30,808 bases of DNA from Pyrinomonadaceae bacterium (GTDB lineage: Bacteria > Acidobacteriota > Blastocatellia > Pyrinomonadales > Pyrinomonadaceae). The notes beneath the pieces were generated by a model. It was not told the DNA's origin and ran no database searches. It was given only the letters and a program-made list of their open reading frames with translations. This document shows, piece by piece, positions 14,115 to 28,003 of the stretch (within the stretch, counting starts at the first letter, position 1; every line of letters begins with the position of its first letter). Both the position numbers and the translations under genes were made by a program. Where the stretch lies: positions 1 to 30,808 of the forward strand of contig JBDSEC010000038.1 in assembly GCA_039920205.1 (NCBI GenBank), written 5' to 3'.

Positions 14115-15668
14115 ATGAGCCCGCGAAAAACTGCCAAAAAAGTAGCCAGGAAATCCGGCGCGTCGACAAAGAAGTCGGCAAAGAAGTCTAGCAAACCGAC
14201 CGCTGCGGCCAAGAAGACGATTGCCCGGAAGACCGTCGCCCGGAAGACGGTGGCGAAGAGGTTGGGTACCGACGGAGCGGCCGAATCCGGGACCGGTTTG
14301 CGCGTCCGGATGTACCGCGTCGGCTTTGGCGATTTTTTTCTGGTCACGGTACCGACCGCCGCAGGTGACAAGTTTATCTTGATCGACTGTGGGGTTTTCA
14401 AGGGTAAGACCGGCAAGGGCGATATCGGATCTATTAACGAAGCGGTTGAGGACCTTTTCAAGACCACTAACGGCGAGTTAGCCCTGGTGATAATGACGCA
14501 TCGGCATGCTGATCACATAGCTGGTTTCAACAAAGCGGAAGATCTCTTTCGCAAATTTACCGCGAGCCAGGTCTGGATGCCCTATTGGGAGCAGTTCAAC
14601 GACGATAAGGATTCAGCTCACAGTCTTCAGTTTGAGATCGAACAATTGGCGATGGAACTTGCCCTTCGTTTTAGGGGCCGTGAGGATGATGAGAGCAAGG
14701 AAGCATTGGCCATGCTGGAAGACGCAACCGGGATCGACTTCAATGCAACCTCCGCGGGACCGAAAAAACTCAGCGGCAATGCCTTGGCACTAGACATACT
14801 GAAGAATCATTTGGGGGCAAAGGGCAAGAAGGTTCGTTACTATGCCGCCGGTGACGAACCGGAACTGCCCGAAGAGTTGGATGGGCTGTCGGCGGTGATC
14901 CTCGGCCCGCCACCGAAGGACGCCCAGGTGTTTATGAAGTTAGAGGACCTGAAAAAAGGGGTTGGGCAATATCTCGACTCCACCTCTGCCGAGGACGGTT
15001 CGGCTTTGCGGCCGTTTCGCGAGCAATGGACCATCACGGCCGACGAGGCTTATCCGCAAGTTGACCTGCGCGACCGGCCGATCAACTACCACGATGTGAT
15101 CCAGCATGTGGCCCGCGCTCAGCCGAGCATGTTGGCCGACGCGGCCAAGAAGGTCGACGATTTTCTCAATAACCAAAGTCTAGTGGTGCTGTTCAAATTT
15201 GCCGGCAAGTCATTGCTCTTTGTTGGTGACGCGCAAGCGGGAAATTGGGAGCACTGGCTTTATGAAGCCGATGCGCCGAGCTCGGACCCAACCAAGCTGG
15301 GCAGCATCAAAGATGAAAGCCAACAGATCCTCCGGACCATAGATTTTTACAAGGTTGGCCATCATGGAAGCACCAATGCCACGCCGATCCAGGCGGTCGA
15401 AGCTCTGTCCGCCGGTCGGAAAGGAGATGGTTTTGTGGCGATGTGTTCGACCCAGCCGGACGTTTACGGCAACCCATTAAAGGGTACTGAGGTTCCGCGC
15501 GACCCGCTGATGGAAGCTTTGGGGGGCGAGTGCGACCTGGTCCGGAGCGACGCCTATGCGATCAACACGGTCGCAAACGGTACGATCGAACCGGGTGAGG
15601 GGGTGCCCAAACCGCCGAAACTGCGCAATCTGGTGAAAGGCGATCTTTACGTCGAGTATTCCTTTTGA
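14115..15668 (+). CDS. ComEC/Rec2-like metallo-beta-lactamase fold hydrolase (putative nuclease) with Lys/Ala-rich N-terminal tail
   Basis: VGFGDFFL, LIDCG, THRHADHIAGF (HxHxDH), LLFVGDA, KVGHHGSTN. ATG at 14115 follows a GGAGGG RBS, 1 bp after the upstream stop. Confidence 0.85.
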   Translation: MSPRKTAKKVARKSGASTKKSAKKSSKPTAAAKKTIARKTVARKTVAKRLGTDGAAESGTGLRVRMYRVGFGDFFLVTVPTAAGDKFILIDCGVFKGKTGKGDIGSINEAVEDLFKTTNGELALVIMTHRHADHIAGFNKAEDLFRKFTASQVWMPYWEQFNDDKDSAHSLQFEIEQLAMELALRFRGREDDESKEALAMLEDATGIDFNATSAGPKKLSGNALALDILKNHLGAKGKKVRYYAAGDEPELPEELDGLSAVILGPPPKDAQVFMKLEDLKKGVGQYLDSTSAEDGSALRPFREQWTITADEAYPQVDLRDRPINYHDVIQHVARAQPSMLADAAKKVDDFLNNQSLVVLFKFAGKSLLFVGDAQAGNWEHWLYEADAPSSDPTKLGSIKDESQQILRTIDFYKVGHHGSTNATPIQAVEALSAGRKGDGFVAMCSTQPDVYGNPLKGTEVPRDPLMEALGGECDLVRSDAYAINTVANGTIEPGEGVPKPPKLRNLVKGDLYVEYSF

Positions 15669-16050
15669 CTGGATCGATTGGACCACAGCTTATCAACTCG
15701 AGCCGGTAGTTAGGAGGACCGGAACCTGGCAGAGAACGAGACCGCGGACGGAACGAGCCCCGACAGTGTGAAATTGACTCCACTGAAGAGACCGCGTTGT
15801 GCCTTTCCGGTGGCGGCTACCGAGCGATGTTATTTCACGTATAGAACTGGCAAACGTGGCGACGCGTTTGAAATGTCTTCCCGCTTTGACACAGGAGCGA
15901 TTGATCATTTGGGGATACGCAGGATGCGACGCGGGAATGCGCAGCCTGTTGATTCCAAACTGCCCGCGCCAACGGCATTTCCGTATCCGGCGGCGGGAGT
16001 TGGCTAAATTTTAAAACTGAGGATCAAAGGCGGTTCCCGCGATGAGGTCG

Positions 16051-16123
16051 GAACCGGGAGCGGTAGCGACTGGGTTATTTTTTGAGCCGGAAGGCACCCT
16101 AACAAAACAAACCCAGTTCTGAC
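16051..16123. terminator. REP-like word GAACCGGGAGCGGTAGCGAC followed by an imperfect hairpin between convergent genes
   Basis: ACTGGGTT (16069-16076) pairs with AACCCAGT near 16112-16119, between a + operon and a - operon. Confidence 0.35.
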
Positions 16124-16124
16124 T

Positions 16125-16304
16125 TCATTCCGGCTGCGCCTCGAACGACGTTACTTCTTCGCCATCGGAGGCGTACGCGATCAAGATCGGTTGGCAGCAG
16201 ACCTCGCAGTCTTCGACGTACTCTTGCGCCGCGACGGAAAGGTCAAGGACCATCGTGATCGTTTGCCAACAATACGGGCAAGCGAAAGCGTATTCGATCT
16301 CCAT
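16125..16304 (-). CDS. CPXCG motif-containing cysteine-rich protein (59 aa)
   Basis: MEIEYAFACPYCW...EYVEDCEVCCQPI. ATG at 16304, 22 bp after the upstream stop. Confidence 0.88.
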   Translation of the reverse strand: MEIEYAFACPYCWQTITMVLDLSVAAQEYVEDCEVCCQPILIAYASDGEEVTSFEAQPE

Positions 16305-16326
16305 GATGGTCCCTGGCCCGCAACAC

Positions 16327-16920
16327 CTAGTTACAGCTACCGTATTTGGCGTCGGCCTGCTGACGGGCCTCCACATTTGCGTTCGGCTTCTTGGCATCGA
16401 TCTCGACGGTAAAGTCAGAGTATTTACCCAAGCCCTGGACCAGCATTGATTGGCCTTTCTGGTTCCCGGGTTGCCACAGCTCAGTCGCTTCGAGTCCGTC
16501 TTTCGGGACATCGATGCGCAAGATAACCGCAAATGGTTTTCCGTTGGCCAACCGCCATTCGATCTTGCGGCCCATTCCGTCGTAATTTATCGGCTGGGCG
16601 GGCAAGTTTACGGGTTCGGCATCACTCTTGGCTAACTCGATGCGCATATGTGAACTCGCCGCACTGTAACCGACCTTGATCACATATCCGCCATAACCTT
16701 TGCATTTCAACGCCTGGTCTTGACCTTCCCCGGCCTTGCCATCGGCCCAGCATTGGGTCTTAAGGTTGGTGTAGAGGCTGGTGAATTTCACCGCCGCCGG
16801 ACTGCCCGCGGGCACAACGCGCCCGACCGGCGAAAGGCTTGCCTTCGTTGTGGTGGTAACCATCGCAGCGGCAATAAGTAATGCCATCGTAAAGAGGGTT
16901 TGAACAATTCGGGTTTTCAT
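16327..16920 (-). CDS. Secreted hypothetical protein
   Basis: AGGAG RBS before ATG 16920, N-terminal signal peptide, two Cys (QC...KC), KIEWRLANGKPFAVILR beta segment. Confidence 0.8.
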   Translation of the reverse strand: MKTRIVQTLFTMALLIAAAMVTTTTKASLSPVGRVVPAGSPAAVKFTSLYTNLKTQCWADGKAGEGQDQALKCKGYGGYVIKVGYSAASSHMRIELAKSDAEPVNLPAQPINYDGMGRKIEWRLANGKPFAVILRIDVPKDGLEATELWQPGNQKGQSMLVQGLGKYSDFTVEIDAKKPNANVEARQQADAKYGSCN

Positions 16921-17176
16921 CAACTTTGCTCCTATTCCCAGCCTGATGTTAGATCAGCCGGGCGACAGATCGCGCCTAGGCGCGTATTGCTAAAACGCTT
17001 GGAGAGAAATCAGTTCGGGTTCGATGGTCGTTGGCGGCCCGTTGGGCAACGCCGCGATTGTATGCAAAACCATGCAAATACATCAAGAGTTGACCGGGCC
17101 AAACAAAAGATTTGCCTAAGACTTCTATGCCTGGCACCGCCGATCGCCCGTAATCATCAGCAATCCTAGGCCATCC

Positions 17177-18169
17177 TTAAGGTCTAGCGGACGCCAGAAG
17201 TTCGAGCGAGCGCAGACGGGCGGTGTGATCGAATATTTGCGCGGTTACCATCACCTCATCAGCCTTGGTCTCGTCAATGAAAATCTCCAGCCATTCACGG
17301 ACCTTTTCCACCGAACCGATCGCGGAAAAACGCAGCGCATTGTTGACCCAACGCATCTCCGATTCGGTGCCAGGTGCTTCGTCGACCGGCGGCGAAAGCA
17401 ACGTACGCGTATCGCGGCGAATATTCAGAAATGCTTGCTGCAGCGACGTCGCCAATCGAGCCGCCTCGGCATCCGTGTCAGCAACGATCGCGTTGATGCA
17501 GGGCATGGCGTACGGCTGGTCCAAGGTTTCCGACGGCCGGAACGATTCGCGATAGGTGGCCAATGCATCTAACAGAAGTTTGGGCGCGAAGTGCGAGGCG
17601 AACGCAAATGGCAAACCCATCAGCCCAGCGAGTTCGGCGCTATATAAGCTTGATCCTAGCAACCAGATCGGTACTTTGGTTCCCGCTCCCGGCACGGCCC
17701 GGATAACCTGGCCTGGCTTCGCATCGGAAAAATAGAATTGCAATTCCGCCACGTCACGCGGGAATTCCTCGTCTACGTTGCTCTGCATTCGCCGCAATGC
17801 TCGCATCGTTATTTGATCGGTTCCCGGTGCCCGGCCCAATCCCAGATCGATCCGGCCCGGATACAGCGATTCCAACGTCCCGAACTGCTCGGCGATCACC
17901 AGTGGTGCGTGGTTTGGCAGCATAACCCCGCCCGAGCCAACGCGGATGATTTTGGTGCCACCGGCGACATAGCCGATCAGAACAGAGGTGGCGGCGCTGG
18001 CGATGCCCGGAATGTTGTGATGTTCGGCCAACCAGTAGCGCTGGTAGCCCCAGGTTTCGGCATGTTGAGCCAGATCCAGGGTTTCGCGGAACGACTGGTT
18101 AATGGTTCCACCCTGCTTGACCGGGGCCAGATCCAAAACTGAAAAGGGAATCGAAGTCCTGCGTGACAT
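17177..18169 (-). CDS. LLM class flavin-dependent oxidoreductase (luciferase-like monooxygenase)
   Basis: [60 protein letters not shown]. Confidence 0.95.
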
Positions 18170-18226
18170 ACCCTATTAGTGACAAGCCAAGCACAAAAAG
18201 TCCAGTGCGCTCAGACCGCCGCGAGC

Positions 18227-19207
18227 TTAACGACGAGGCCGACGACCCGCGCTTCCATAGCGGAGTTGCACTTTGATCAAGAGCGGCTGACTCGCCACTG
18301 CGCCCGGGCGATAAAAGAGCATCTGCGGCGCGGGTTCGGCGTGCGAGAGCAGGCGGCCGTTCGGCGTGGCAGCTTCTTTTTCTCTACTGGTCCAGGTTCG
18401 TTTCCGCCCCTCGGTCAGATCTAGCCGGCCCGCTTGACCGCCCCATTTTTGCTCCCAGACGGTTACTTGTTTCGCGGAAAGGGTTTGCGCCTGATCGCCG
18501 ATCTGCAATTCTTCAAGCGGTTCCGGGGTGACGATAACGGTCAGCATCTCGCCGACCTGATCCGTGCGGCTGCGTTTCAGCGTAAAGAACGGAGGACTGT
18601 CGTCTTGACCGGGAAGATCGATCAATCTTCCCGCCTGAACCTGGTTGTTTCCCCCCAACGTACGCGTCGTGGGAAAGACCAAGAGCGGCTCGCCAAAGGT
18701 GCCATCGGCATACTGTTCACGATCGATAACATAGAGGTATCCGGTCCGGGCAGCCTCGATCGTAAGTCGTACCCGGTTGCCTTCGGACAGGGGGGCATTG
18801 CCGGGGACCAACTCCGGGATCCAGGCTGCGGTGCTTGCACCTTCGTGAACGATTATCCTTTCACCTTCGTCGGCCGCGGCCACGGGACGCAAGCGCCACA
18901 CCGTAACGCCAATAACGGAATCGGCAGTGACATTATTGATCGAGACCTTGGGCGTAACCACGCGGTATTTTCGCGGCGTCGGGTTCTTGGCGGACCTTCC
19001 GGAGGTCTTCGCCGTGGCTTTGAAAGCCGTGTCCCAAAGGTTACGCGTCGTGTCGTGATCTGCGACCTTCTGGGCTCGAACCACAACGCTGTTGAAACAA
19101 AGCAATAACGCGCCCACAAAAATGCCGGCCAATCCTATTCGCGGGGACGCAAGAGCGGCCGCGCGCAATCTCAAATAGGTCCAGTGTCCGTCAAATCTCG
19201 ACTGCAT
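18227..19207 (-). CDS. Exported or membrane-anchored DUF4384-like domain protein
   Basis: ATG 19207 follows GGAGG inside the CHAT gene end. Hydrophobic segment ending VRA-Q; EGNRVRLTIEAARTGYLYVID, LVFP, GEMLTVIVTPEPL match the DUF4384 pattern. Confidence 0.8.
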   Translation of the reverse strand: MQSRFDGHWTYLRLRAAALASPRIGLAGIFVGALLLCFNSVVVRAQKVADHDTTRNLWDTAFKATAKTSGRSAKNPTPRKYRVVTPKVSINNVTADSVIGVTVWRLRPVAAADEGERIIVHEGASTAAWIPELVPGNAPLSEGNRVRLTIEAARTGYLYVIDREQYADGTFGEPLLVFPTTRTLGGNNQVQAGRLIDLPGQDDSPPFFTLKRSRTDQVGEMLTVIVTPEPLEELQIGDQAQTLSAKQVTVWEQKWGGQAGRLDLTEGRKRTWTSREKEAATPNGRLLSHAEPAPQMLFYRPGAVASQPLLIKVQLRYGSAGRRPRR

Positions 19208-19211
19208 AAAA

Positions 19212-22200
19212 TTACCTCCACTCGCCTTGCTGAACGAACGCCGCCCAATAATACGGCGATCGCCACTGCTTCTGTCTCCACAGCGCCAGTTGGGCTTCGC
19301 GGAACGCCGCCGTCGGCCGCATTCCACCCGTGATCATTCCTTGATAGAGGCGCGCCATAAGTTCCGCCGTCCCTTTATCGCTGACGTTCCACATGCTGAC
19401 AATAATGCGGGCGGCGCCGGCGTACATAAATCCACGGGTCAATCCAACCACCCCTTCACCTTTGATCACTTTACCCAGGCCGGTTTGGCAGGCGCTTAGG
19501 ACCACCAGCTCCGCCGGGAGGTTCAGGTTGTAGATCTCCTGCGTCTTGAGTAGGCCCTCGCGCGGTTCACCGCGTTCGTTCACCAGGGAAAGGACCAACG
19601 CCGACAGGCCGGGTCTTTCACTGTCAATGTATCCGTGGGTAGCAAAGTGCACGTAACGATACTTGCTCAACTCTCCATCGGTAGCTGCGGCCAGATTTGC
19701 CTTGAAATCCAGAGCCTCGAAATTTGAGGACTTGGGCGCCACCGCTAGAATTCGTTGCGCTTCCTGCCGAGTGAAGGGAAGTCGGCGGATCTGAGCGTCT
19801 TCATCTGAAAGATGTTCCAACGTTCGAGTTCCGTCGGTTCGTGCGATCGTCCCCGTTGGGGGTGCTTCTGATCTTCCCGGTTGGGAACGGACCCGCGCAT
19901 CCGATCGGTCAAAAACCGGATCCGCTAATAACGCAATGTTGTTGGGCGCCGGTTGGCGGCCGGCTAATTCGTTTCGCTGCAGGGCGAGGATCGAAGCCGA
20001 CGGTAAACTGACGATCTCGTGGTCGACGAACAGCGGTCTATAGGTCTGTCTAGCCAAAGAGTTTTCGGGTCGCCCGGCGATCACTGACCGCTCCGCCGCC
20101 GCTGGAACCGATAACATTGAAAAAGGAATATACTGCAACGCCCCGTCGGCGACGATCGCCAAACGTTTGTTCTCAAGTTCAGCCGCCGCCGGTCCTACTA
20201 GCAAGCCACTCAACTGTTCAGCCGCCGTTTGCGCGTCCCGGTCGGCCTGGTCGATCCGAACCCGTTTCTGTGCGGGACTTTCCTTCTCTTTTCGTTGGGC
20301 ACGCGCGGTCACTAATTCATAGAGCCGCCGCGCCGACATTTCGATCTGGTCGCGGCCCGCTAATTGATAACTGGTCAAACCATTTCGCGTCACCACCCAG
20401 AGATAACTGCGTTTGGTCCCGAGCGAGTATTCCAAGAGCAACGTGTCGGGATCTAACTGTTTTTGCAGTTCAGCCAGGTCCAGCGCTTGCGGCTGAGTCA
20501 CCGCGGCATAGTGAGGGCTGAGCCGGCGAATATCGCCGCGAACCTGCTGATAATCCGCTTCCAGCGCGCCGATCTCTTGCTGCAATTTTTGGATCTGATC
20601 CGCCCGGTCGGACTGACCCTTTAAGGTGATCAAACGCGTCGCTTTAGTGTTGAGAATTTGCGCCAATTCGCGTTCACGATCTAGCAATTTCAGGTCAGCA
20701 CCTTGACGGACGTCAACCCCAAACTCCGCCAGCATATCCAGCAGGCTGCGCGCGCGGGCGCGTTCGCTGACCTTGAGCGCCGCGGCGTCGTAGCCCTTCC
20801 GGGGTTCTGCTTGATGCATTCGCATCAGCAAGTCGATCATCAATTCGTACGCATCTTGCCGCGAAGCAAAAAATGAGGTTCGCAATTGTTGACTGGTAAC
20901 CCGTCCACGCATGGTCTCAACGATATTGATCGCCGCGTCGGCCTGTTCGCGCGCTTGGATGAAGTTATTACTGGCGAGCTGTGCTTCGGCCAGGCCTTGA
21001 CGCGCGCGCGCCTCGTCAAGCCGGTCAGTTAGTTCCAAAAATATCCCTAGCGCTTGGGTGTAAAATTCGATCGCCTGAGCCGCGTTGCCGGCCAGCAGTT
21101 GAGCTTGCCCCAGATAGACCAAAATGATGCCTTCTTCGCGGCGGCTGTGGGTGGTCCGCGCGAGTTCGAGTGCTAATTGCAATTGCCCGATGGCGTCTTG
21201 GGGTTGGCCGAGTGAAGTGTAGGCCGCTCCGATATTCTTTAGCGTGACGGCTTCTCCCCGCCGATCTCCCGATGTCCGTCGCAAGGGCAGCGCTTGGTTG
21301 AAATAATTCAGCGCCGTCGCCGTTTCGCCCGATGACGCATAGGCGAATCCGATCTGATTAAGCGTATTGGCTTCGCCCTGGACGTCTTTGGCTATACGCC
21401 GCAGTTGAAGTGCGCCGGTGAGAAACTCCAATGCCTGTGGCGGCTCGCCCAGCGCGACATAGACCAAGCTGAGGTTATCCAGCGTGTCGGCCTCGCGCCG
21501 CCAATTGCTGCCCTGCCGGCGCAAAGGTAAGGCACGGCTTAAAAAGTCTAAGGAGAGCTGCAGGTCGCCGAGGTTGTAATAAATGACCCCTATGTTGTTC
21601 AACGTGTCGCCCCGCGCCACATCATTGTTAAGCGTTCCCCACAAAGCCAGCGCCTGGTTATAATGAAGCAGGGCCGGTTGCGGTTCGCCTAGTACATCGT
21701 AGGCGCCGCCCAGGTTGTTGAGCATACGCGCCTGATTTCGTTGGTCATTGATCGATTGGCTTAGCTCAAGGGCCCGGTCAAAACGCGCTAGGGCAAGTTG
21801 CGGTTGGCCCAACGCGTTATAAGCCAGGCCCAATCGGTTGAGTACCGAAATTTCCAGGAACGGGTCGGGCAGTGAATGGAAGATGGGTAACAGTGCTTCC
21901 AATTGCACCAGCGCTTCCTGTCTAGTTGCGGGCTGTTGCAGCAATTTCGAAGCGCTCCGAAATCCTTGTTCGCCCTCCACGCGCGAACGGTCGGTGGCCG
22001 TCGGTTCCCGCAACGCTTCCACTTTGATCTCGAAATCACCGGCCGCGGCCCTGGCGTCAGGCGACCGCACTTCGATCAGATACGTGCCCGGTCCGGCGGC
22101 GATGGCCGAGATCGGTTCCGGTCCGAAATTGCCGTTCGGACTGTCCATCTCGATCAACCGTTGATGCTCCGGCCCGATCAGCGCAACGGCGACATCGATC

Positions 22201-22424
22201 CCTTGTTGCTCGACCACCACGCGCACAAATTGTCCGGCGATCAATTCCACCGGAAAGAGTTGAGTCTCGCCGCCAGCGAGCCTTCCATTGACGGACTGGC
22301 CTAGAACGAGCGGAGTCGACGGTGACTGGCCGCGCGCGGTATTGGCGGTCAGGACCAGGGCACCGGTCGCCGCCGTTAATAGGCAAGCACAAAAAAAGGC
22401 ACTGATGTTGTACGGGCGTCGCAT
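19212..22424 (-). CDS. Exported PPC-like + TPR-repeat + CHAT (caspase-like) protease, 1070 aa
   Basis: Signal peptide ending ARG-Q, PPC-like beta domain, about 8 TPRs, CHAT dyad HFATHG and VLSACQT, C-terminal SPYYWAAF. Confidence 0.93.
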   Translation of the reverse strand: MRRPYNISAFFCACLLTAATGALVLTANTARGQSPSTPLVLGQSVNGRLAGGETQLFPVELIAGQFVRVVVEQQGIDVAVALIGPEHQRLIEMDSPNGNFGPEPISAIAAGPGTYLIEVRSPDARAAAGDFEIKVEALREPTATDRSRVEGEQGFRSASKLLQQPATRQEALVQLEALLPIFHSLPDPFLEISVLNRLGLAYNALGQPQLALARFDRALELSQSINDQRNQARMLNNLGGAYDVLGEPQPALLHYNQALALWGTLNNDVARGDTLNNIGVIYYNLGDLQLSLDFLSRALPLRRQGSNWRREADTLDNLSLVYVALGEPPQALEFLTGALQLRRIAKDVQGEANTLNQIGFAYASSGETATALNYFNQALPLRRTSGDRRGEAVTLKNIGAAYTSLGQPQDAIGQLQLALELARTTHSRREEGIILVYLGQAQLLAGNAAQAIEFYTQALGIFLELTDRLDEARARQGLAEAQLASNNFIQAREQADAAINIVETMRGRVTSQQLRTSFFASRQDAYELMIDLLMRMHQAEPRKGYDAAALKVSERARARSLLDMLAEFGVDVRQGADLKLLDRERELAQILNTKATRLITLKGQSDRADQIQKLQQEIGALEADYQQVRGDIRRLSPHYAAVTQPQALDLAELQKQLDPDTLLLEYSLGTKRSYLWVVTRNGLTSYQLAGRDQIEMSARRLYELVTARAQRKEKESPAQKRVRIDQADRDAQTAAEQLSGLLVGPAAAELENKRLAIVADGALQYIPFSMLSVPAAAERSVIAGRPENSLARQTYRPLFVDHEIVSLPSASILALQRNELAGRQPAPNNIALLADPVFDRSDARVRSQPGRSEAPPTGTIARTDGTRTLEHLSDEDAQIRRLPFTRQEAQRILAVAPKSSNFEALDFKANLAAATDGELSKYRYVHFATHGYIDSERPGLSALVLSLVNERGEPREGLLKTQEIYNLNLPAELVVLSACQTGLGKVIKGEGVVGLTRGFMYAGAARIIVSMWNVSDKGTAELMARLYQGMITGGMRPTAAFREAQLALWRQKQWRSPYYWAAFVQQGEWR

Positions 22425-22500
22425 GGTTGTTCTTGGGAGCGGATCACGGAAAATTCCCCCGATCCGCTACCGCTGTTGTCGTTGGTCTCTTCACAACAGA

Positions 22501-22893
22501 TCAGCGCGGGTCGCCGCTGCCTTGTCCCTGAGCCGACCAACTGCCGTCTTCTTGGCCGGTCGGAAGCGTTTTACTGGAAACGGTTCCCGACATACTATTA
22601 GGAGTGTCCAACTGACCAACAAAATAATAGGTCGTGCCATTCAACTCGATCTGGAACGCGACCTGCATGTCGTCTCCGACTGTTGCCTGTTCCAAGGCAT
22701 AGGCCGTCGTTGTTGGTTTCTCGCTGTTTACACTTCCATAAAGGTCCAAACCACCGACGGTTGGTCCTTGATAAGCAATGACGATCTCCTTCATTGTTTC
22801 GAGAACTTGTACGCCCGAAACGTCTAAGGTCCAGGATCCGGTGATCGACGGTAGATCAAGCGCTTTGTTGTTTGTCGGGGCAATGTCAGTCAT
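22501..22893 (-). CDS. Small beta-rich hypothetical protein (130 aa)
   Basis: Strong AAGGAGAG RBS 7 nt before ATG 22893. Alternating beta patterns (ITGSWTLDV, VAFQIELNGTTYYFVGQL, DGSWSAQ). No signal peptide. Confidence 0.8.
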   Translation of the reverse strand: MTDIAPTNNKALDLPSITGSWTLDVSGVQVLETMKEIVIAYQGPTVGGLDLYGSVNSEKPTTTAYALEQATVGDDMQVAFQIELNGTTYYFVGQLDTPNSMSGTVSSKTLPTGQEDGSWSAQGQGSGDPR

Positions 22894-23008
22894 ATTCACT
22901 CTCCTTGTTGGTGACCAAGTGAAACCTTAAGGCGAACACCCGCATTTGCGGCGCGCGCGCCAAAGAAGGCAGACTACGCCGTAAACAGTTGTCAATGCCG
23001 CTACTGAT

Positions 23009-23039
23009 TAATGCGTAATTCAGGCACAGATCACCTCAT
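23009..23039 (-). promoter_or_regulatory. Candidate ECF promoter, copy A (ATGAGG-N18-CGCATTA)
   Basis: Minus strand reads ATGAGG tgatctgtgcctgaatta CGCATTA, about 115 bp upstream of the ATG at 22893. Same words and spacer as copy B. Confidence 0.65.
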
Positions 23040-23182
23040 TCGTTACCGCTCGGTGATATTTGGGGGCAACTACCGGGTTCCGCCGGCCGGATCGTCAAGC
23101 TGAAGGTGAACCCAACTAGACGAAATTATCTGCATTATTATTTGCAAAAGCTAACGGCGGACTCCCGTTCGACAACTTCGAC

Positions 23183-25012
23183 TCAGTGATGCTCAAGTCG
23201 AAGCAGATAGACAAGTGTATCACCATTATATTTGAGCGCGACCTCCTTATTTTCTTCATCAACCGCCACCCGCGGTTTGGGATATTGCGGCGAATTCAAA
23301 AAATTTCTTACGCCCTCGCTCGATCCGAGGTCGCTGATCAAACCACGGTCACGCCGGTTGGCTAGCCCCTTGAGCGCCTCGAGCGAGGGAATTGGCATCG
23401 ACGAGTACACCAACCACAATTTCTCGGTGCCTTGGATAGCGTCGAAGGCGATCCAGCTATCCGCGGGTACCTGCAGCTCGTTACCCGCGGACAGTCGTGA
23501 ATTGCCGGCGTTGGTCGTGGACGAAGGGAATAGGATCACGAACGAACTCGGCTGACCGCTGGTGGCAGGTCCCTCATTAAAAACATAGAGCTGGCCGTCT
23601 TGCGGGCTGCGCAGGTGCAAACGGATCTGATAGTCGTTTTCGAAAACTATCTCTTTTCCCAAGCGGAACGGTGCTTGAAACGGCTTACCGTCCCGGTATT
23701 TCTGCACCTCGATCCAGTAGCTAAGTTGGCGTTCGGGGGCGAATGACGCTGGCCCCGGTGATGCGGGTGACGGGTGGGCCGAGCGCCAGAGCTTTACCGC
23801 GACAAAAGCGGCACCTGCCAGCAGCAACCCTGTGATCAATACGAATAGGACCGTCCGGGCTTTTGATCGGCCGACTTTCCACGGCGGTTGGCCGAGGGAA
23901 TTCATAGGGGCGGACTGCGCGCCGCTGGTAGAGCCCAAACTAGGTTCCAAGTCGCGGTGCAGCGCTTGGAGATCTTCAACCAATTCAGCCGCCGCCGCAT
24001 AACGTTGACGGCGATCCTTGGCGAGTAACTTGCCGAGGACCAGTGCCAGTTTGGCTGTCGCCGCGCGGTTTTCCAACTTTAACGGAAAGGGGTCGCGCTC
24101 TAAAATGGCGGCGATCACATCGCCACGGCTTGGACCACTAAAAGGCGCGGCGCCGGCGATCATTTCGTAGAGCACGACGCCCAGACTCCAAAGATCTGTG
24201 CGCGCGTCCACCGAAAAGGCCCGAACTTGTTCCGGCGACATATATGCGGTGGTGCCCATCAATAACCCGGGCGTGGTCAAGTACGAGTCGCTCGTTGCAC
24301 CCCCGTGGGATGGATCTGGCGCGTATTTGGCCAGGCCGAAATCCAAGATCTTTATCCGGCCGCGTGCGTCCAGCATGATATTTTCCGGTTTAATGTCGCG
24401 GTGAACGATGCCGATCTGATGGGCTTCAGCCAGGGCGCCCGCGATCTGTCCGGCGATCCGCAACGCCTCCTTGATCGCCAAGGGGCCCCGCGTTATTATC
24501 CGGCGCAAGGTCTCGCCGGCAACAAATTCCATGGCGATAAAATGTCGGCCATCGGCCTGCTCGATCTCGTAAATACTGGCAAGATTTGGATGGTTCAAGG
24601 CCGAAGCCGCGCGGGCTTCTTGACGGAATCGTCGAACCAGGTCCGGATCATCCGCCAGATGGTCCGGCATCAATTTTAGCGCGACTTGGCGGCCCAAACG
24701 GGAATCTTCGGCCAAGTAAACCTCGCCCATTCCGCCGGCGCCCAACAAGCTGATGATCCGATACGGGCCTAGCACCGCTCCGTCTAGCTCACCCGTCAAT
24801 GGATCGATCAACAGTTCCGCCGCCATTTCAAATGCCGGAGCGTCAAGAAAACTACCGGGCCGCTCGTCGGCGTTGAGTAAGGCCTCTACTTCAGCACGCA
24901 GTTCGGCATCCGCGCCGCAAGCATCCGCTAGAAACGCCGGTCGCTCGGATTCCGGTTGCTCAAGGGCGGCATGAAAGTGCCGCTTGATGATCTGGTAGCG
25001 CTCGGGATTCAT
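23183..25012 (-). CDS. Hanks-type Ser/Thr protein kinase, one TM helix, C-terminal DUF4384-like ectodomain
   Basis: GAGGMGEVY, VALK, HRDIKPEN, DFGLAK, YMSPEQ, DLWSLG; TM VLFVLITGLLLAGAAFVAV; N-terminal ERPAFLADACGADAELRAEVEALL extension typical of ECF-linked kinases. Confidence 0.95.
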   Translation of the reverse strand: MNPERYQIIKRHFHAALEQPESERPAFLADACGADAELRAEVEALLNADERPGSFLDAPAFEMAAELLIDPLTGELDGAVLGPYRIISLLGAGGMGEVYLAEDSRLGRQVALKLMPDHLADDPDLVRRFRQEARAASALNHPNLASIYEIEQADGRHFIAMEFVAGETLRRIITRGPLAIKEALRIAGQIAGALAEAHQIGIVHRDIKPENIMLDARGRIKILDFGLAKYAPDPSHGGATSDSYLTTPGLLMGTTAYMSPEQVRAFSVDARTDLWSLGVVLYEMIAGAAPFSGPSRGDVIAAILERDPFPLKLENRAATAKLALVLGKLLAKDRRQRYAAAAELVEDLQALHRDLEPSLGSTSGAQSAPMNSLGQPPWKVGRSKARTVLFVLITGLLLAGAAFVAVKLWRSAHPSPASPGPASFAPERQLSYWIEVQKYRDGKPFQAPFRLGKEIVFENDYQIRLHLRSPQDGQLYVFNEGPATSGQPSSFVILFPSSTTNAGNSRLSAGNELQVPADSWIAFDAIQGTEKLWLVYSSMPIPSLEALKGLANRRDRGLISDLGSSEGVRNFLNSPQYPKPRVAVDEENKEVALKYNGDTLVYLLRLEHH

Positions 25013-25039
25013 GCACGTGTTGATCGTTAAGGTCGAGAT

Positions 25040-25603
25040 CTAGGCTTCAAGTTCGCGGCGCAACCAGGCCCGCGCCATTTTCCATTCGCGTTCGATGGTG
25101 GCATGCGAACGCGACATGACTTCGGCGGCCTCTTCGATGGTTAGTCCACCGAAAAAGCGCAATTCGACGATCTGGCTTTGTTGTGGATCCAGTTTCTCCA
25201 GTCTTTTTAAGGCAGCATGCAGATTCAGTAGGTCGACGCCGGGATCACCCGCGACCTGGTTCGCCTCGCTTAGCGACACACTGTATTGATCTCCCCCGCG
25301 TTTGGCCGCCCGGTGCGCGCGGGCATGATCTACCAAAATTCGGCGCATGAGTTTGGCTGAGATCCCGAAAAAATGGGCCCGATTTTGCCATTTGATGTTG
25401 TGTTGGTCGATAAGGCGGACAAAGACTTCGTTGATCAACGCCGTAGGCTGCAACGTATGATCTTGCCGTTCTCGTTCTAAATAATTGCCCGCCAAGCGCC
25501 GCAGATCCTGATAGATCAACGGCACCAATTCGTCGAGCGCACTCGCTTCACCGTTGCTCCAACGTTCCAAAACCACGGTAATGTTTGGTTGGGCCTGCGT
25601 CAC
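25040..25603 (-). CDS. ECF sigma factor, kinase-associated (ECF43 / TIGR02999-like)
   Basis: ALDELVPLIYQDLRRLA, HTLQPTALINE, WQNRAHFF, MRRILVDHAR..KRGG, RFFGGLTIEE. GTG 25603 follows a GGAAGGG RBS; 27 bp from the kinase start. Confidence 0.92.
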   Translation of the reverse strand: MTQAQPNITVVLERWSNGEASALDELVPLIYQDLRRLAGNYLERERQDHTLQPTALINEVFVRLIDQHNIKWQNRAHFFGISAKLMRRILVDHARAHRAAKRGGDQYSVSLSEANQVAGDPGVDLLNLHAALKRLEKLDPQQSQIVELRFFGGLTIEEAAEVMSRSHATIEREWKMARAWLRRELEA

Positions 25604-25769
25604 GTCTGACCCTTCCAGGTGATAGCTTGCAAATACGGAAGTCGGAGAGGGGTTTGGCTGCTGCCGGAAAAAGTTGGTCGAAAGGAAAAACCGCAACAAA
25701 GGCGAACCGGGCAAGTCGAAGAGTACAGGCGGCGAAACAATTTATTCATTCGATCCAGCGTGATCCAGC

Positions 25770-26316
25770 GTGCTTAACTAGTTGAGCAGTTTACCCCTGA
25801 ATCTTGGGAACGGCAACACATTGAAGTTCCTCGCAAAGTTAATAATTGATTGGATTGTGGTGGCGCGAACTTTCTACGCCAAGGTCACGGTAGGTCCGCA
25901 CGCAGAAAACCGAACCCGTTTGGCCGGATCCGCAAATTCGCCGAGGGGTGGCCGAATGCGGTCCGTCGGGTTCGGTCAATTGCCTGCAGGGGTGAATCAA
26001 ACTCTAATCGAGGCCGGTAATGCGGTCGCGGCTATCGGCCGCATCCACCGGCCCATTCAACCCGTCCGTAATCCTTCGGCCACAGCTAGGGGACCTAACT
26101 GTAGGTTACTTACGGGTCAGGGAATCGGTCTCTTCACTTCTTGATCGGGATCAAGAAGTGTCGACCACTCTCCCTCAGACGCTCGCATCGGCCTTTAACA
26201 AGTTCGGTACGCTCAGGAGCGGGAAGCTGCCGAACCCGTCGCCGTTCGATCTGGCACTCAGATCTCGACCGGCGTCATTGTCCCGGTGGGAGAACGAGCG
26301 TTGACGAACCGTCCTC
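25770..26316. ncRNA. Candidate structured non-coding RNA or long structured leader (no known family recognised)
   Basis: At least seven stems read by eye, e.g. ACCGAACCCG/CGGGTTCGGT (25909-25976), GGCCGGT/ACCGGCC (26012-26053), CACTTCTTGATC/GATCAAGAAGTG (26135-26160), GACGCTCG/CGAGCGTT (26178-26302). No credible ORF; strand unresolved. Confidence 0.5.
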
Positions 26317-26322
26317 ACTTAG

Positions 26323-26353
26323 TAATGCGGAAGTACGGGAAAAAGTCCCTCAT
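26323..26353 (-). promoter_or_regulatory. Candidate ECF promoter, copy B (ATGAGG-N18-CGCATTA)
   Basis: Minus strand reads ATGAGG gactttttcccgtacttc CGCATTA, immediately ahead of the structured region. Confidence 0.65.
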
Positions 26354-26467
26354 AAAAAGGAGAATATTTTTTGGGGAGGGTTGTGCGGTCAGTTTTTGGC
26401 CGTTAGCCATTAGCCCGGGGAGGTATCAGCCACCAGGTTCAATGAGGTAACACTCGGGCGCCCGGCC

Positions 26468-26591
26468 GGGACATCGGGCGACCCGCCCGCAGGTTGCGGA
26501 GCCACGATCGACACCGAAAGCATCCAACGTAACCTGTAGGCTTTTTCCTGACTAGACTCCTCCGCATCAGCGGGCAGGTCGCCCGCGCTCC
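26468..26591. repeat. REP-like inverted doublet (GGAGCGCGGGCGACCTGCCCGC type)
   Basis: CGGGCGACCCGCCCGCaggtTGCGGAG on the left is the near reverse complement of CTCCGCAtcaGCGGGCAGGTCGCCCG on the right. Confidence 0.65.
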
Positions 26592-26668
26592 GGCGTTCGT
26601 CCGCCCGTGAGCGTGTAAATTATTTTGTGTAAATGGTCACTGAGCCGATAACCAGCTAAGGTTGGAGG

Positions 26669-27901
26669 ATGGCAAAAGGAGCACGGGTGACCAAAGAAAA
26701 AGATCTGATTGACGAGTTATTAAAGGATTACGAAAAGCCGGAGGATTTGCTGGGGGAAAATGGGCTGCTAAAGGAACTGACGAAGCGGCTGCTGGAGCGA
26801 GTAATGGGAGCGGAACTGACGCATCACGTTGGTTACGAGAAACACGATCCGGCGGGACATAATAGCGGGAACTCGCGGAACGGGAGTTCGGCGAAAACGC
26901 TGAAAGGAAGTTTTGGCACGATGCCGCTGGCGGTGCCGCGGGATCGAAACGGCACCTTTGAGCCACAGATCATTGAAAAGAATCAGACGCATTTTACCGG
27001 GTTCGACGCGAATATCATTTCGCTCTATTCGCGAGGCCTGTCGGTGCGTGAGATCCAGCAACATCTGGAAGAGATCTACCATGTCGAAGTTTCGCCGGCG
27101 TTGATCTCGGGGGTAACGGACGGGGTGGCGGAAGAGGTCAAAAGCTGGCAGAACCGGCAATTGGATCCGCTCTACTTCGTGGTTTATCTGGACGCAATTC
27201 AGTTCAAGGTGAGGGATAACGGACAGGTCAGAAACAAAGCGGTGTACTTGGCGATCGGCATCACGCGTGAAGGCAAGAAGGAAGTATTAGGCCTGTGGAT
27301 CGCGCAAACGGAAGGAGCCAAGTTTTGGTTGCAAGTAGTGACGGAACTGAAGAATCGGGGCGTAAAAGACATCATTATCGCGTGCGTGGATGGGCTCAAA
27401 GGGTTCCCCGAAGCGATTGAAAGCGTGTTCCCGCAAACTCAAGTACAGCTTTGTATCGTGCATCTCGTACGGCACTCGCTGAATTATGTCGGCTGGAAAC
27501 AGCGCAAGGAAGTCGCCCATGATCTGCGGTTGATCTACTCCGCGCCGACCGAGGTAGCGGCCGAACAGCAGTTGGCCGAGTTTGCGGAAAAGTGGGACTC
27601 CAAGTTCCCGATGATCGCGCGGTCCTGGCGAAATAACTGGGCCCGGGTGATTCCCCTATTCGGCTATCCGCCGGAGATTCGCCGGATCATTTATACGACC
27701 AATGCGATCGAGTCGTTGAACATGTCGCTGCGCAAAGTGACCAAAACGCGGGGGTCCTTCCCCCAGGACGAGGCGGTCTTCAAATTACTCTATTTGGCGC
27801 TACGCAATATCGCCAAGAAGTGGACCATGCCGGTACAAAACTGGAAGCAGGCGCTTAACTGCTTCGCCTTGCTTTATGAAGACCGACTGGCAGAACAGTG
27901 A
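26669..27901 (+). CDS. IS256-family (mutator-type) DDE transposase
   Basis: GGAGG RBS; NSRNG, VPRDRNGTFEP, DDE residues in YLDAI, CVDGLKGF and TTNAIESLN. Confidence 0.96.
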   Translation: MAKGARVTKEKDLIDELLKDYEKPEDLLGENGLLKELTKRLLERVMGAELTHHVGYEKHDPAGHNSGNSRNGSSAKTLKGSFGTMPLAVPRDRNGTFEPQIIEKNQTHFTGFDANIISLYSRGLSVREIQQHLEEIYHVEVSPALISGVTDGVAEEVKSWQNRQLDPLYFVVYLDAIQFKVRDNGQVRNKAVYLAIGITREGKKEVLGLWIAQTEGAKFWLQVVTELKNRGVKDIIIACVDGLKGFPEAIESVFPQTQVQLCIVHLVRHSLNYVGWKQRKEVAHDLRLIYSAPTEVAAEQQLAEFAEKWDSKFPMIARSWRNNWARVIPLFGYPPEIRRIIYTTNAIESLNMSLRKVTKTRGSFPQDEAVFKLLYLALRNIAKKWTMPVQNWKQALNCFALLYEDRLAEQ

Positions 27902-27941
27902 ACTCGGTAACATGCGGACCCTGATCGCATCATGGAAATTT

Positions 27942-28003
27942 TTTTCCGGGCGCCGGAGCGGCGCAAAAACGCGCGTTTTTACACCGCTCCGGCGCCCGGA
28001 AAA
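27942..28003. terminator. 62-bp near-perfect palindrome in the IS 3' region
   Basis: TTTTCCGGGCGCCGGAGCGG / CCGCTCCGGCGCCCGGAAAA 20-bp arms enclosing the perfect palindrome AAAAACGCGCGTTTTT. Confidence 0.7.

Follow-up and report, generated by a model that had tools for sequence, protein, structure and literature searches.

How might a cassette of five genes, which in a soil acidobacterium of the family Pyrinomonadaceae (assembly size 4.7 Mb) places an ECF sigma factor beside a Hanks-type kinase, a caspase-like protease and a free copy of the kinase's putative sensor domain, operate as a signalling system? We addressed this question in a window of 30,808 nucleotides, the whole stretch of DNA analysed. 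An earlier note, made from the letters alone, had seen here five co-oriented genes, a domain shared by two of them, a promoter-like motif present twice and a structured non-coding block. All four elements are present in the sequence, and the five genes do lie on the minus strand at the positions given in Table 1, with 27 nt between the sigma factor and kinase genes and 4 nt between the stop codon of the CHAT gene and the start of the DUF4384 gene. We found no published description of the full architecture.

Table 1 Features of the cassette and of the region upstream of it, with positions in the window.
Feature	Position	Strand	Basis or remark
ECF sigma factor gene, 187 aa	25603-25040	minus	TIGR02999 / PF07638; ECF43-type region 2.2 motif QPTA (Thr54)
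Hanks Ser/Thr kinase gene, 609 aa	25012-23183	minus	domain matches and residue motifs
Small-protein gene, 130 aa	22893-22501	minus	first gene behind site 2
TPR-CHAT caspase-like protease gene (predicted), 1070 aa	22424-19212	minus	PF12770 match
DUF4384 protein gene (predicted exported or membrane-anchored), 326 aa	19207-18227	minus	profile match below gathering score
Promoter-like site 1, TGAGG-N18-CGCAT	26325..26352	minus	directly upstream of the non-coding block
Promoter-like site 2, TGAGG-N18-CGCAT	23011..23038	minus	117 nt before the small-gene start
Candidate structured non-coding RNA of ~415 nt, or long structured leader of the sigma-kinase operon	25903..26316	minus	conservation and folding
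Terminator-like hairpin and U-run (tail GTTTTCTGCG)	25901..25932	minus	terminator scan; 3' end of the block
Possible housekeeping-type promoter of the sigma-kinase operon, TTGCCG-17-TAAACT	25788..25816	minus	inference only

The five proteins of the cassette

The sigma factor contains sigma-70 regions 2 and 4 only, as is the case for the ECF family (PF07638, E 1e-57, together with Sigma70_r4_2), and scored 220 bits against TIGR02999, for which the cut-off is 126. In its region 2.2 the acidic DAED motif is replaced by LQPTAL, which includes Thr54, a residue number that is right provided that the protein starts at the GTG at 25603. The sequence LQ[PTA]TAL, threonine included, is conserved in 13 orthologues and in all seven genomic copies (the source genome encodes seven sigma paralogues of the same type). 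An uncharged QTTA or STTA with a phospho-acceptor threonine, in place of DAED, is the signature of ECF43 sigma factors (PMC13147305, PMC8999054). Furthermore, the kinase gene adjoins the sigma factor gene in all loci, which is the ECF43-type pairing, and domain searches detected no anti-sigma domain in the five cassette proteins. By its domains, its kinase neighbour and its QxTA motif, the protein is probably of the ECF43 type proposed in the earlier note.

The kinase is composed of an 80-residue N-terminal segment, a kinase domain (residues 84-341; Pkinase match, E 6.5e-48), a single transmembrane helix (~388-406) and a predicted extracytoplasmic DUF4384-type β-sandwich (~445-545). All motifs expected of a Hanks-type kinase are in place, namely GAGGMG at 91, VALK at 110, HRDIKPEN at 204, DFG at 224 and SPE at 259. 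The presence of DUF4384 in both the kinase and the free protein was less evident from Pfam (PF14326), which gave 17.4 and 19.2 bits, respectively, below the gathering score of 27; their orthologues in G008, a Pyrinomonadaceae metagenome-assembled genome, scored 21.8 and 24.9 bits. The free protein has a paralogue with 46% identity that reached 41.3 bits, and profile-profile comparison (hhalign) aligned the family of the kinase ectodomain with that of the free protein over 98 columns, with 96.4% probability and an E value of 1e-9. Taken together, the sub-threshold scores, the high-scoring paralogue and the profile-profile match point to the kinase ectodomain and the free protein as divergent members of DUF4384. 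The free protein has a hydrophobic segment at residues 24-42, a β-sandwich core and a conserved TTR(N/K)LWDTAF motif.

The TPR-CHAT protein begins with a hydrophobic signal or anchor (residues 7-25), followed by a β-rich domain (~35-140) common to other CHAT paralogues, tetratricopeptide repeats (~190-500) and the CHAT domain itself (PF12770, residues 733-1067, E 8e-63). The catalytic dyad of the family is intact, with His930 in HFATHG (926-931) and Cys979 in LSAC (976-979), so that the protein is a predicted protease and, given its N-terminal hydrophobic segment, probably the exported TPR-CHAT protein that the earlier note had described. Judging from hydrophobic segments, the C-terminus of the kinase, the CHAT protein and the DUF4384 protein are all predicted to lie outside the cytoplasm.

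The small protein has no signal peptide and is predicted to form an eight-stranded streptavidin-like β-barrel (pLDDT 76), the model of which matched avidins and other streptavidin-like barrels with VIA Z values of 8-11. It had been called an orphan, which proved incorrect, as a small family of 52 clusters includes it. It shows 31-37% identity where the neighbouring proteins show ~60%, and in other genera unrelated small ORFs occupy its slot. A staphostatin cluster was among the nearest named Atlas clusters (score 0.81), and the structural matches listed for the small protein included no staphostatin structure.

Conservation and the possibility of a defence role

A search for synteny, proposed together with the earlier note, showed that the genes do co-occur, as the order sigma-kinase-small-CHAT-DUF4384 is kept, as far as the contigs reach, in the window, L003, L004, L005 (which lies in G008), L010, L011, L012 and L013. 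These eight loci are all those carrying a homologue of the small protein, and represent two or more genera as well as several metagenomes. Identity to the window proteins was 79-93% for the sigma factor, 51-83% for the kinase, 60-82% for the CHAT protein, 61-81% for the DUF4384 protein and 31-82% for the small protein. At a larger scale, the free DUF4384 family occurs in 20 of 401 Acidobacteriota genomes. A kinase with a homologous ectodomain was found near the gene in 19 of the 20 loci fetched and a TIGR02999-type sigma factor in 10 of them; most also have a CHAT or WD40 giant. Across Acidobacteriota, the pairing of the kinase with a free DUF4384 protein forms the constant core, and variation concerns the giants (CHAT or WD40), the small gene and the place of the sigma factor gene.

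This distribution bears on an alternative that we regard as unlikely, in which the module would be a conflict or defence system, and not a homeostatic sensor of the envelope, whose kinase and sigma factor detect a phage, predator or competitor, with the CHAT protein or the WD40/TPR giants acting as effector or pattern receptor and the barrel as immunity protein or inhibitor. Such a role would fit the fact that each genome carries two to three paralogous kinase/DUF4384 loci among which the giant repeat proteins are exchanged, that insertion sequences adjoin two cassettes, and that the small protein evolves fast and is replaced by unrelated ORFs in other genera. Moreover, known systems that combine an ECF factor with TPR-CHAT proteins are linked to defence, as is the case for DdvA-DdvS (PMC11506125) and Craspase (bioRxiv 10.1101/2022.08.17.504292), and EcfK/PknS governs an anti-amoeba type VI secretion system (T6SS) (PMC13147305). 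However, PADLOC returned generic kinase and TPR matches only, the cassette includes no NTPase, nuclease or other classical effector, and in close relatives it is vertically inherited with conserved flanks. The mechanism that a defence role implies would in any case be compatible with the one we favour below, the difference being confined to biological role.

The promoter-like motif and the structured block

The two copies of TGAGG-N18-CGCAT noticed in the earlier note, which extend to ATGAGG-N18-CGCATTA at 26353-26323 and 23039-23009 (both on the minus strand), are the only matches in the entire 4.7 Mb assembly. A generalised form, TGAGGN3TN11TTNCGCAT, likewise matched twice, against 0.11 matches expected, and G008 (98% complete, 5.2 Mb) contains a single match to the motif, at the orthologous site. 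The motif lies 117-125 nt before the start codon of the small gene in 8/8 loci, while the flanks diverge, and is bipartite, with an invariant spacer length of 18 nt and a variable spacer sequence. Its two halves are 23 nt apart from start to start, a distance also found in classical ECF promoters. These observations support the view of the motif as a phylogenetic footprint with ECF-promoter geometry, although we found no published ECF43 promoter comparable with it.

The copy upstream of the sigma factor gene has a narrower distribution. Outside the window it was seen in two close relatives only, L003 and L004, where the 18-nt spacing is kept and the sequence further upstream cannot be aligned. 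It is absent before the sigma factor gene in L005 and L011. Autoregulation is usual for ECF factors; here it is not general, since most relatives lack the motif before the sigma factor gene. Of the shared motif proposed earlier, the two copies and their uniqueness within the genome stand, but the copy before the sigma factor gene is not a general feature of the module.

Assignment of the motif to the adjacent sigma factor is based on conserved linkage, and one of the seven paralogues could read it instead. That TGAGG-N18-CGCAT is the promoter of such a paralogue, or the operator of another regulator, and that the sigma-kinase and CHAT operons are linked merely by co-inheritance, seems to us quite improbable, even considering the number of similar sigma factors in the genome and the sigma factor genes without a site in L005 and L011. 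A bipartite element with an invariant 18-nt spacer resembles -35 and -10 elements and not a palindromic operator, its distance from the gene is constant, and two genomes contain no further copy. Furthermore, a one-base variant travels with a diverged sigma factor in the rearranged cassettes of another family, f4 (G027 and G031), in which the cassette sigma factors are 55-57% identical. The variant, TGAGT...CGCAT, has two and three matches in these two genomes (~8.4 Mb); with one exception, they lie on the contig of the cassette and precede the kinase-DUF4384 operon or genes for exported proteins.

Site 1 is followed by the non-coding block, which is 85% and 88.7% identical to its counterparts in L003 and L004, a level equal to that of the sigma factor coding sequence and above that of the other genes and spacers. 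Alignment with these relatives revealed frameshifting indels, with neither a conserved ORF nor 3-base periodicity. On the gene strand the block folds with a minimum free energy of -192 kcal/mol (z = -5.5), compared with z = -3.4 for the opposite strand, and its terminator-like hairpin sits within a longer stem, CCGAACCCG...CGGGTTCGG. As the block was found in three near relatives only, compensatory pairs were few (3 among 142 predicted), and the proposed structure is based mainly on energy and conservation. RNA-library contigs from two soil studies cover 25982-26302. Rfam gave no match at E ≤ 1 over 15000-28000 of the window, and none at gathering score in L003, L004, L081 and L083. A conserved block with a stable predicted fold and no conserved reading frame is present, as had been proposed, but it is not general to the module, having been detected in the window and two close relatives only.

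It is possible, although we consider it doubtful, that the block is not an RNA in its own right. It would then either lead the sigma-kinase mRNA and act in cis, like an attenuator or a riboswitch, or be a conserved element that acts as DNA. The block lies upstream of the sigma-kinase operon, on the same strand and 300 nt from the start of the sigma factor gene, and the hairpin at its end could serve as an attenuator. The possible housekeeping-type promoter downstream of it is weak, matching 8/12 consensus positions, and is not among the elements that the scan lists. On the other hand, there is an abrupt fall in conservation immediately past the U-run, with no recovery before TTGCCG-17-TAAACT, an element kept in the window, L003 and L004 within an otherwise less conserved spacer. 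The stronger folding of the gene strand argues for RNA over DNA, and more distant cassettes work without the block.

A proposed circuit and its relation to known systems

We consider it probable that the cassette serves Blastocatellia-type Acidobacteria (Pyrinomonadaceae) as a dedicated module for envelope signalling, built on the known ECF43 logic, with every biochemical step inferred. The single-pass kinase would expose its DUF4384 β-sandwich outside the cytoplasmic membrane, where the trigger would act, and the triggered kinase would transfer phosphate to Thr54 in the QPTA motif of the partner sigma factor, supplying the negative charge needed for binding to RNA polymerase. The active sigma factor would then read one private promoter type, TGAGG-N18-CGCAT, the output of which would be the exported caspase-like protease, the exported paralogue of the sensor domain, the cytoplasmic streptavidin-like barrel protein and the RNA. 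Feedback would take place at the sensor, with the protease and the free DUF4384 protein acting on, or competing with, the kinase ectodomain. This appears to be the most likely logic because the free protein is homologous to the sensor, and because DUF4384 is elsewhere fused to caspase-type proteases and occurs on some variants of the substrate of a known TPR-CHAT protein. In the clade that has the block, read-through of the RNA's terminator may add positive autoregulation of the sigma factor and kinase.

A more elaborate version of the circuit, which we think has little chance of being correct, is a periplasmic caspase-like cascade. In this scheme the CHAT protein would recognise DUF4384 and cleave the kinase ectodomain as an on/off switch, the free DUF4384 protein would be a decoy or adaptor, the barrel would act like a staphostatin and keep the protease from becoming active too early, and the 415-nt RNA would represent a new class that tunes the circuit. 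Staphostatin-staphopain and other pairs of a protease with a β-barrel inhibitor would resemble the cassette in that a small eight-stranded barrel without signal peptide is encoded beside an exported cysteine protease. Nevertheless, the small protein has no sequence similarity to staphostatin, inhibition is purely hypothetical, and many binders unrelated to one another have the streptavidin-like fold, among them avidins and the exclusion domain of cathepsin C.

Type III-E Craspase (Csx29, Csx30, Csx31 and RpoE) also brings together a TPR-CHAT protein, an ECF sigma factor and DUF4384 in one system: Csx30, some C-terminal domains of which are DUF4384, is cut by the TPR-CHAT protein Csx29 and binds the sigma factor RpoE (bioRxiv 10.1101/2022.08.17.504292). 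We rejected the cassette as a Craspase accessory module, given that no Cas or Csx family matched the five cassette proteins and that the N-terminus of the CHAT protein is of export type. The cassette lacks Cas7-11 and any CRISPR component, its protease would be exported and not cytoplasmic, DUF4384 is found on the kinase ectodomain and on a free exported protein, and the sigma factor would be controlled by phosphorylation and not by sequestration.

The DdvA-DdvS system shares with the cassette a TPR-CHAT module outside the cytoplasmic membrane that has a genetic link to the pathway of an ECF sigma factor (PMC11506125). A DdvA-type anti-sigma function of the CHAT protein was considered and rejected, since only six residues precede its hydrophobic segment, leaving no room for an anti-sigma domain. 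Whereas DdvA has an N-terminal cytoplasmic, zinc-binding anti-sigma domain that one TM helix joins to the periplasmic TPR-CHAT part, the protein studied here is a separate, predicted exported one, with a signal or anchor only. In addition, the sigma factor of the cassette is of the kinase-activated type and, by the motif, the protease would be an output of the sigma factor rather than, or besides, its gatekeeper.

EcfP-PknT of Vibrio parahaemolyticus and EcfK-PknS of Xanthomonas citri likewise place a two-domain ECF sigma factor by a transmembrane Hanks kinase, without an anti-sigma factor, and have the same uncharged Q-x-T-A with a threonine (T54 here, T51 in EcfK) (PMC13147305, PMC8999054). 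A short conserved N-terminal segment ahead of the kinase domain is also common to all of them. The cassette differs from both pairs in its host, an acidobacterium, in its putative DUF4384 sensor and in its predicted regulon, which would comprise the adjacent operon and the RNA and not T6SS or polymyxin-resistance genes.

Gene content and conservation of the cassette

The window is contig C38 of a MAG of 4.7 Mb that is 80% complete. The genes which an earlier note had described as a co-oriented set all lie on the minus strand, with six features between 26353 and 18227. The sigma factor has 187 aa if GTG at 25603, which is preceded by a GGAAGG ribosome-binding site, is the start codon. The Hanks kinase starts 27 nt past the sigma stop and contains a single hydrophobic helix (residues 388–406), followed by a C-terminal domain of approximately 200 residues. 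A spacer of 289 nt leads from the kinase to the small gene, and both the TPR-CHAT protein and the free DUF4384 protein have a hydrophobic segment at the N-terminus. Comparison of the CHAT protein sequence with solved structures gave TPR matches only, and PADLOC returned nothing beyond generic kinase and TPR matches. No RGxG octapeptide common to the kinase tail and the CHAT protein was found; the one word they have in common is the 5-mer SLGQP, located on the cytoplasmic side of the kinase.

A 7-bp hairpin in the 76 nt that separate the small gene from the CHAT gene might keep CHAT expression below that of the small protein. Past the DUF4384 gene, a luciferase-like monooxygenase gene begins after 57 nt on the same strand; as this linkage is found only in the closest relative, L003, the gene is probably outside the module.

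Table. Cassette genes, associated features and related loci (window positions, unless a locus or genome contig is named).
Feature	Position	Strand	Details
Sigma factor	25603-25040	-	PF07638 E 1e-57; TIGR02999 220 bits
Hanks kinase	25012-23183	-	609 aa; full set of catalytic motifs
Small protein	22893-22501	-	130 aa; AAGGAG site upstream; without hydrophobic segment
TPR-CHAT protein	22424-19212	-	1070 aa; CHAT E 8e-63; His930 and Cys979
DUF4384 protein	19207-18227	-	326 aa; start 4 nt past CHAT stop
Promoter-like motif, site 1	26353-26323		before the non-coding block
Promoter-like motif, site 2	23039-23009		before the small gene
Terminator scan hit	25932-25911		plus U-rich tail
Spacer hairpin	22440-22475	-	GCGGATC...GATCCGC
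Luciferase-like monooxygenase gene	18169-17177	-	
IS256/Mutator-family transposase gene	26669-27901	+	
Inverted repeat	26475-26585		16 nt, 94% complementary; arms 79 nt apart
GCTAACN heptamers, window	~26390-26440	-	
GCTAACN heptamers, relatives	L003:100-200; L004:190-240		
IS1595-family transposase gene	L011:3161-3841		
C214 locus, window genome	L008:1780-16960		
Kinase/CHAT slot ORF	L065:6654-6983	-	109 aa
Kinase/CHAT slot ORF	L068:6051-6416	-	121 aa
Motif variant sites, family f4	L083:9722; L083:13171; L081:1813; G031:C172:19659; G031:C189:545		

The synteny search suggested in the earlier note recovered the same order, within contig reach, in every fetched locus with a small-protein homologue. 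All five genes are present in L003, in L011 and in L005, the latter from a MAG of another genus (G008). In L004, L010 and L012 contig ends interrupt the cassette and the remainder is consistent with this order, while L013 retains the kinase end and the small gene. The genes flanking the cassette vary among loci.

A profile search found the free DUF4384 protein family in 20 of 401 Acidobacteriota genomes, which belong to several families of the class and to one family outside it. In 19 of the 20 fetched loci this protein is accompanied by a kinase with a homologous ectodomain, and three layouts were observed: sigma-kinase-(small gene)-CHAT-DUF4384, as in the window; CHAT-sigma divergent from kinase-DUF4384; and kinase and DUF4384 genes separated by WD40/TPR giants, as on contig C214 of the window genome. 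The near-constant pairing across these layouts indicates that the invariant core consists of the kinase and the free sensor paralogue, which are often joined by a sigma factor and by a giant repeat protein of the CHAT or WD40 type.

At the C214 locus the kinase shares the ectodomain of the cassette kinase, and the free DUF4384 protein matches Pfam at E 1.7e-10; the locus further encodes two WD40 proteins of approximately 1100 aa and two TPR proteins, one of them with an RHS repeat. It also contains a 131-aa ORF whose C-terminus resembles that of the WD40 giants in related loci. No sigma factor was recognised beside this cassette paralogue.

The promoter-like motif and the sigma-kinase pairs

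The motif reported in the earlier note, ATGAGG-N18-CGCATTA, occurs exactly at sites 1 and 2 and nowhere else in the assembly. The spacers upstream of the small gene diverge, yet all eight loci examined keep TGAGG, an 18-nt spacer and CGCAT, with T at position 4 and TT at positions 16–17 of the spacer also conserved, and with 117–125 nt between the motif end and the small-gene start codon. The 13-base consensus is matched twice in the window genome, where 0.11 matches are expected, and once in G008 (98% complete), at the orthologous site.

In family f4, where the cassette sigma is 55–57% identical, the motif is present as a one-base variant, TGAGT...CGCAT, and the pattern TGAGTRAA-N11-TTTSCGCAT is confined to five sites. 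Two are found in genome G027 (8.4 Mb), both in the cassette, one of which precedes the kinase-DUF4384 operon. The other three are in G031 (8.3 Mb), two of them on the cassette contig, each approximately 50 nt before a gene for an exported protein of at least 480 aa, and these three proteins look paralogous. Because the f4 pattern was derived from three of the five sites, only the lack of other matches and the two extra sites count as independent. The other G027 site, downstream of the DUF4384 gene, is followed by a stretch of at least 370 nt in which no ORF is convincing and which folds at z = -2 only, so there is no clear RNA behind it.

The 23-nt start-to-start geometry of the motif is like that of classical ECF promoters. 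Given this geometry, its bipartite form, the fixed spacer, the fixed distance to the gene and the strict locus specificity, the motif is best read as a private promoter of the cassette sigma. That it is read by this sigma rather than by its six paralogues we infer from linkage only. A published ECF43 promoter consensus was not found in the literature consulted.

Region 2.2 of the cassette sigma is LQPTAL, in agreement with the signature of ECF43, in which the acidic DAED is changed to QTTA or STTA and phosphorylation of the Thr activates EcfP and EcfK (PMC13147305, PMC8999054). This Thr is kept in 13/13 orthologues and in 7/7 genomic copies. Kinase-sigma pairs form a large paralogous group in the window genome. 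Besides the cassette sigma, six TIGR02999-type sigma genes are located on contigs C151, C302, C522, C544, C552 and C612, and each of them has LQxTAL. A contig match was obtained by tblastn for six of the seven sigma copies. The conserved N-terminal segment of the kinase lies directly beside the sigma gene on C302, C522, C544, C552 and C612, not on C151, and the window's own kinase is the sixth in this arrangement.

The non-coding block and the upstream edge

When the window was aligned with L003 and L004, the sequence upstream of site 1 could not be aligned, and a block of approximately 415 nt was seen to start at the motif. The 3' end of the block is a long hairpin, CCGAACCCG...CGGGTTCGG, followed by UUUUC; past it lie a poorly conserved spacer of approximately 80 nt and, approximately 190 nt before the sigma start, a conserved TTGCCG-17-TAAACT element. 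Block identity to L003 and L004 (85% and 88.7%) equals the level of the sigma gene and is above that of the kinase, CHAT, DUF4384 and small genes (73–84%) and of other spacers (70–77%). Five indels of one base and one of three bases interrupt the alignment of the block, none of the frames is open throughout the three sequences and substitutions are distributed 31/23/23 over codon positions, so the block is not coding.

The predicted fold of the block has an energy of -192 kcal/mol, and the z-score is -5.5 for the gene strand versus -3.4 for the opposite strand. RNAalifold predicted 142 pairs from the three sequences, with 3 compensatory and approximately 17 one-sided compatible changes. The structured RNA proposed in the earlier note is borne out as a conserved, stably folded, non-coding element found only in the window and two relatives, but covariation falls short of proof, three sequences being too few.

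The block matched no Rfam family, and homologues were found neither in JGI metagenome contigs by exact-pattern scans nor in 150 family genomes by blastn, which gave short matches only. The short matches inspected all lie within ORFs; for two pairs of matches, translated motifs point to HtrA-like and IHF-like coding sequence, and the short matches were therefore treated as chance. One of them, in L029, is 1.5 kb downstream of a CHAT-DUF4384 pair but also lies within an ORF. In two soil metatranscriptome studies, contigs assembled from RNA libraries match 25982–26302 at 85–95% identity, with small shares in the runs. They lend weak support to transcription of a relative's copy of the block, and DNA carry-over is possible in these libraries. 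These runs were chosen with the block, so missing cover on neighbouring genes is uninformative. In our reading, the block is either a non-coding RNA specific to this lineage or a structured leader, under the promoter type of the protease operon.

Approximately 300 nt upstream of site 1 there is an IS256/Mutator-family transposase gene and, in the distant cassette of L011, 110 nt separate the sigma gene from the end of an IS1595-family transposase gene upstream of it, placing insertion sequences at the same edge of two cassettes. Degenerate tandem GCTAACN heptamers are found just upstream of site 1 in the window, L003 and L004, and their copy number varies among the three. An inverted repeat between the transposase gene and site 1 (CGGGCGACCCGCCCGC / GCGGGCAGGTCGCCCG) could represent a terminator or the end of an IS.

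DUF4384, the small barrel protein and the putative circuit

DUF4384 had been claimed to occur twice in the cassette, and the kinase and the free protein do appear to be divergent members of one domain family. Their Pfam DUF4384 matches are both below cut-off; the assignment follows from the BLASTP match between the two proteins (E 2e-6), the match between the family profiles of the kinase ectodomain and the free protein (96.4% probability, E 1e-9), the G008 orthologues, whose DUF4384 scores are above those of the window proteins, and the free-protein paralogue on C214, which scores 41 bits. In the AlphaFold model of the free protein (mean pLDDT 63), a beta-sandwich core is predicted with confidence and the N-terminal third is disordered; the sandwich is generic, with weak matches to RhoGDI and carbohydrate-binding domains. 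Foldseek searches of the PDB with this model and that of the small protein gave no match at E <= 0.001. A predicted complex of the kinase ectodomain with residues 88–326 of the free protein scored 0.00, which is uninformative either way.

The label of orphan given to the small protein had to be abandoned, since it has four close relatives and 52 clusters in 1.8 billion representatives. Its model (pLDDT 76) consists of eight antiparallel strands and aligns best to streptavidin-like barrels (Z 8–11), namely avidins, a haemoglobin linker domain, amine dehydrogenase domain 3 and the cathepsin C exclusion domain. In the Atlas, a staphostatin cluster is among its nearest named clusters, with a score that is a lead only. 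An attractive guess is that the small protein is a staphostatin-like protease inhibitor, as it lacks a signal peptide, its gene directly precedes that of an exported cysteine protease and it evolves approximately twice as fast as its neighbours. The ORFs that occupy the kinase/CHAT slot in other genera (L065, L068) have no profile similarity to the 130-aa family, and the slot therefore seems variable.

In the most likely reading, the cassette follows the logic of ECF43, DUF4384 would be the sensor, the regulon would consist of one operon, and the induced protease and free DUF4384 protein would feed back on the kinase ectodomain. Taken as a whole, this chain seems to us somewhat favoured. Kinase-activated ECF sigmas have been studied in only two or three cases, with signal and regulon mostly unknown. 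Here, comparative genomics leads to a proposed circuit that is complete and open to testing, in a soil phylum that has received little study; it comprises a putative DUF4384 sensor, Thr54 as the presumed phospho-acceptor and a putative private promoter with a one-operon regulon. The circuit would tie its output to caspase-like TPR-CHAT proteases, whose bacterial roles are only now emerging (Craspase, DdvA). It suggests that DUF4384 functions as a kinase sensor and as a partner of caspase-family proteases, and it includes a conserved candidate for a structured RNA outside Rfam.

The module is not described in any of the seven papers in the searchable literature that mention DUF4384; STK-DUF4384 fusions are on record only as a listed domain architecture (bioRxiv 10.1101/2025.01.12.632604), and the occurrence of CHAT genes close to ECF54 sigmas has been noted (PMC8999054). 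New are the putative promoter linking sigma and operon, the recognition of a constant core formed by the kinase and the free DUF4384 protein, the family of barrel proteins and the candidate RNA. Should the sensor be a target of the protease, the circuit would represent a new coupling of extracytoplasmic proteolysis to transcription without an anti-sigma factor. Feedback of the protease and free DUF4384 protein on the kinase ectodomain is put forward tentatively, as possible rather than expected, and draws on two precedents. In the first, the TPR-CHAT protease Csx29 cleaves Csx30, a protein that binds an ECF sigma and whose C-terminal domain is DUF4384 in some versions; DUF4384 is noted there to be often fused to proteases (bioRxiv 10.1101/2022.08.17.504292). 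The second precedent is DdvA, in which a periplasmic TPR-CHAT forms part of an ECF pathway (PMC11506125).
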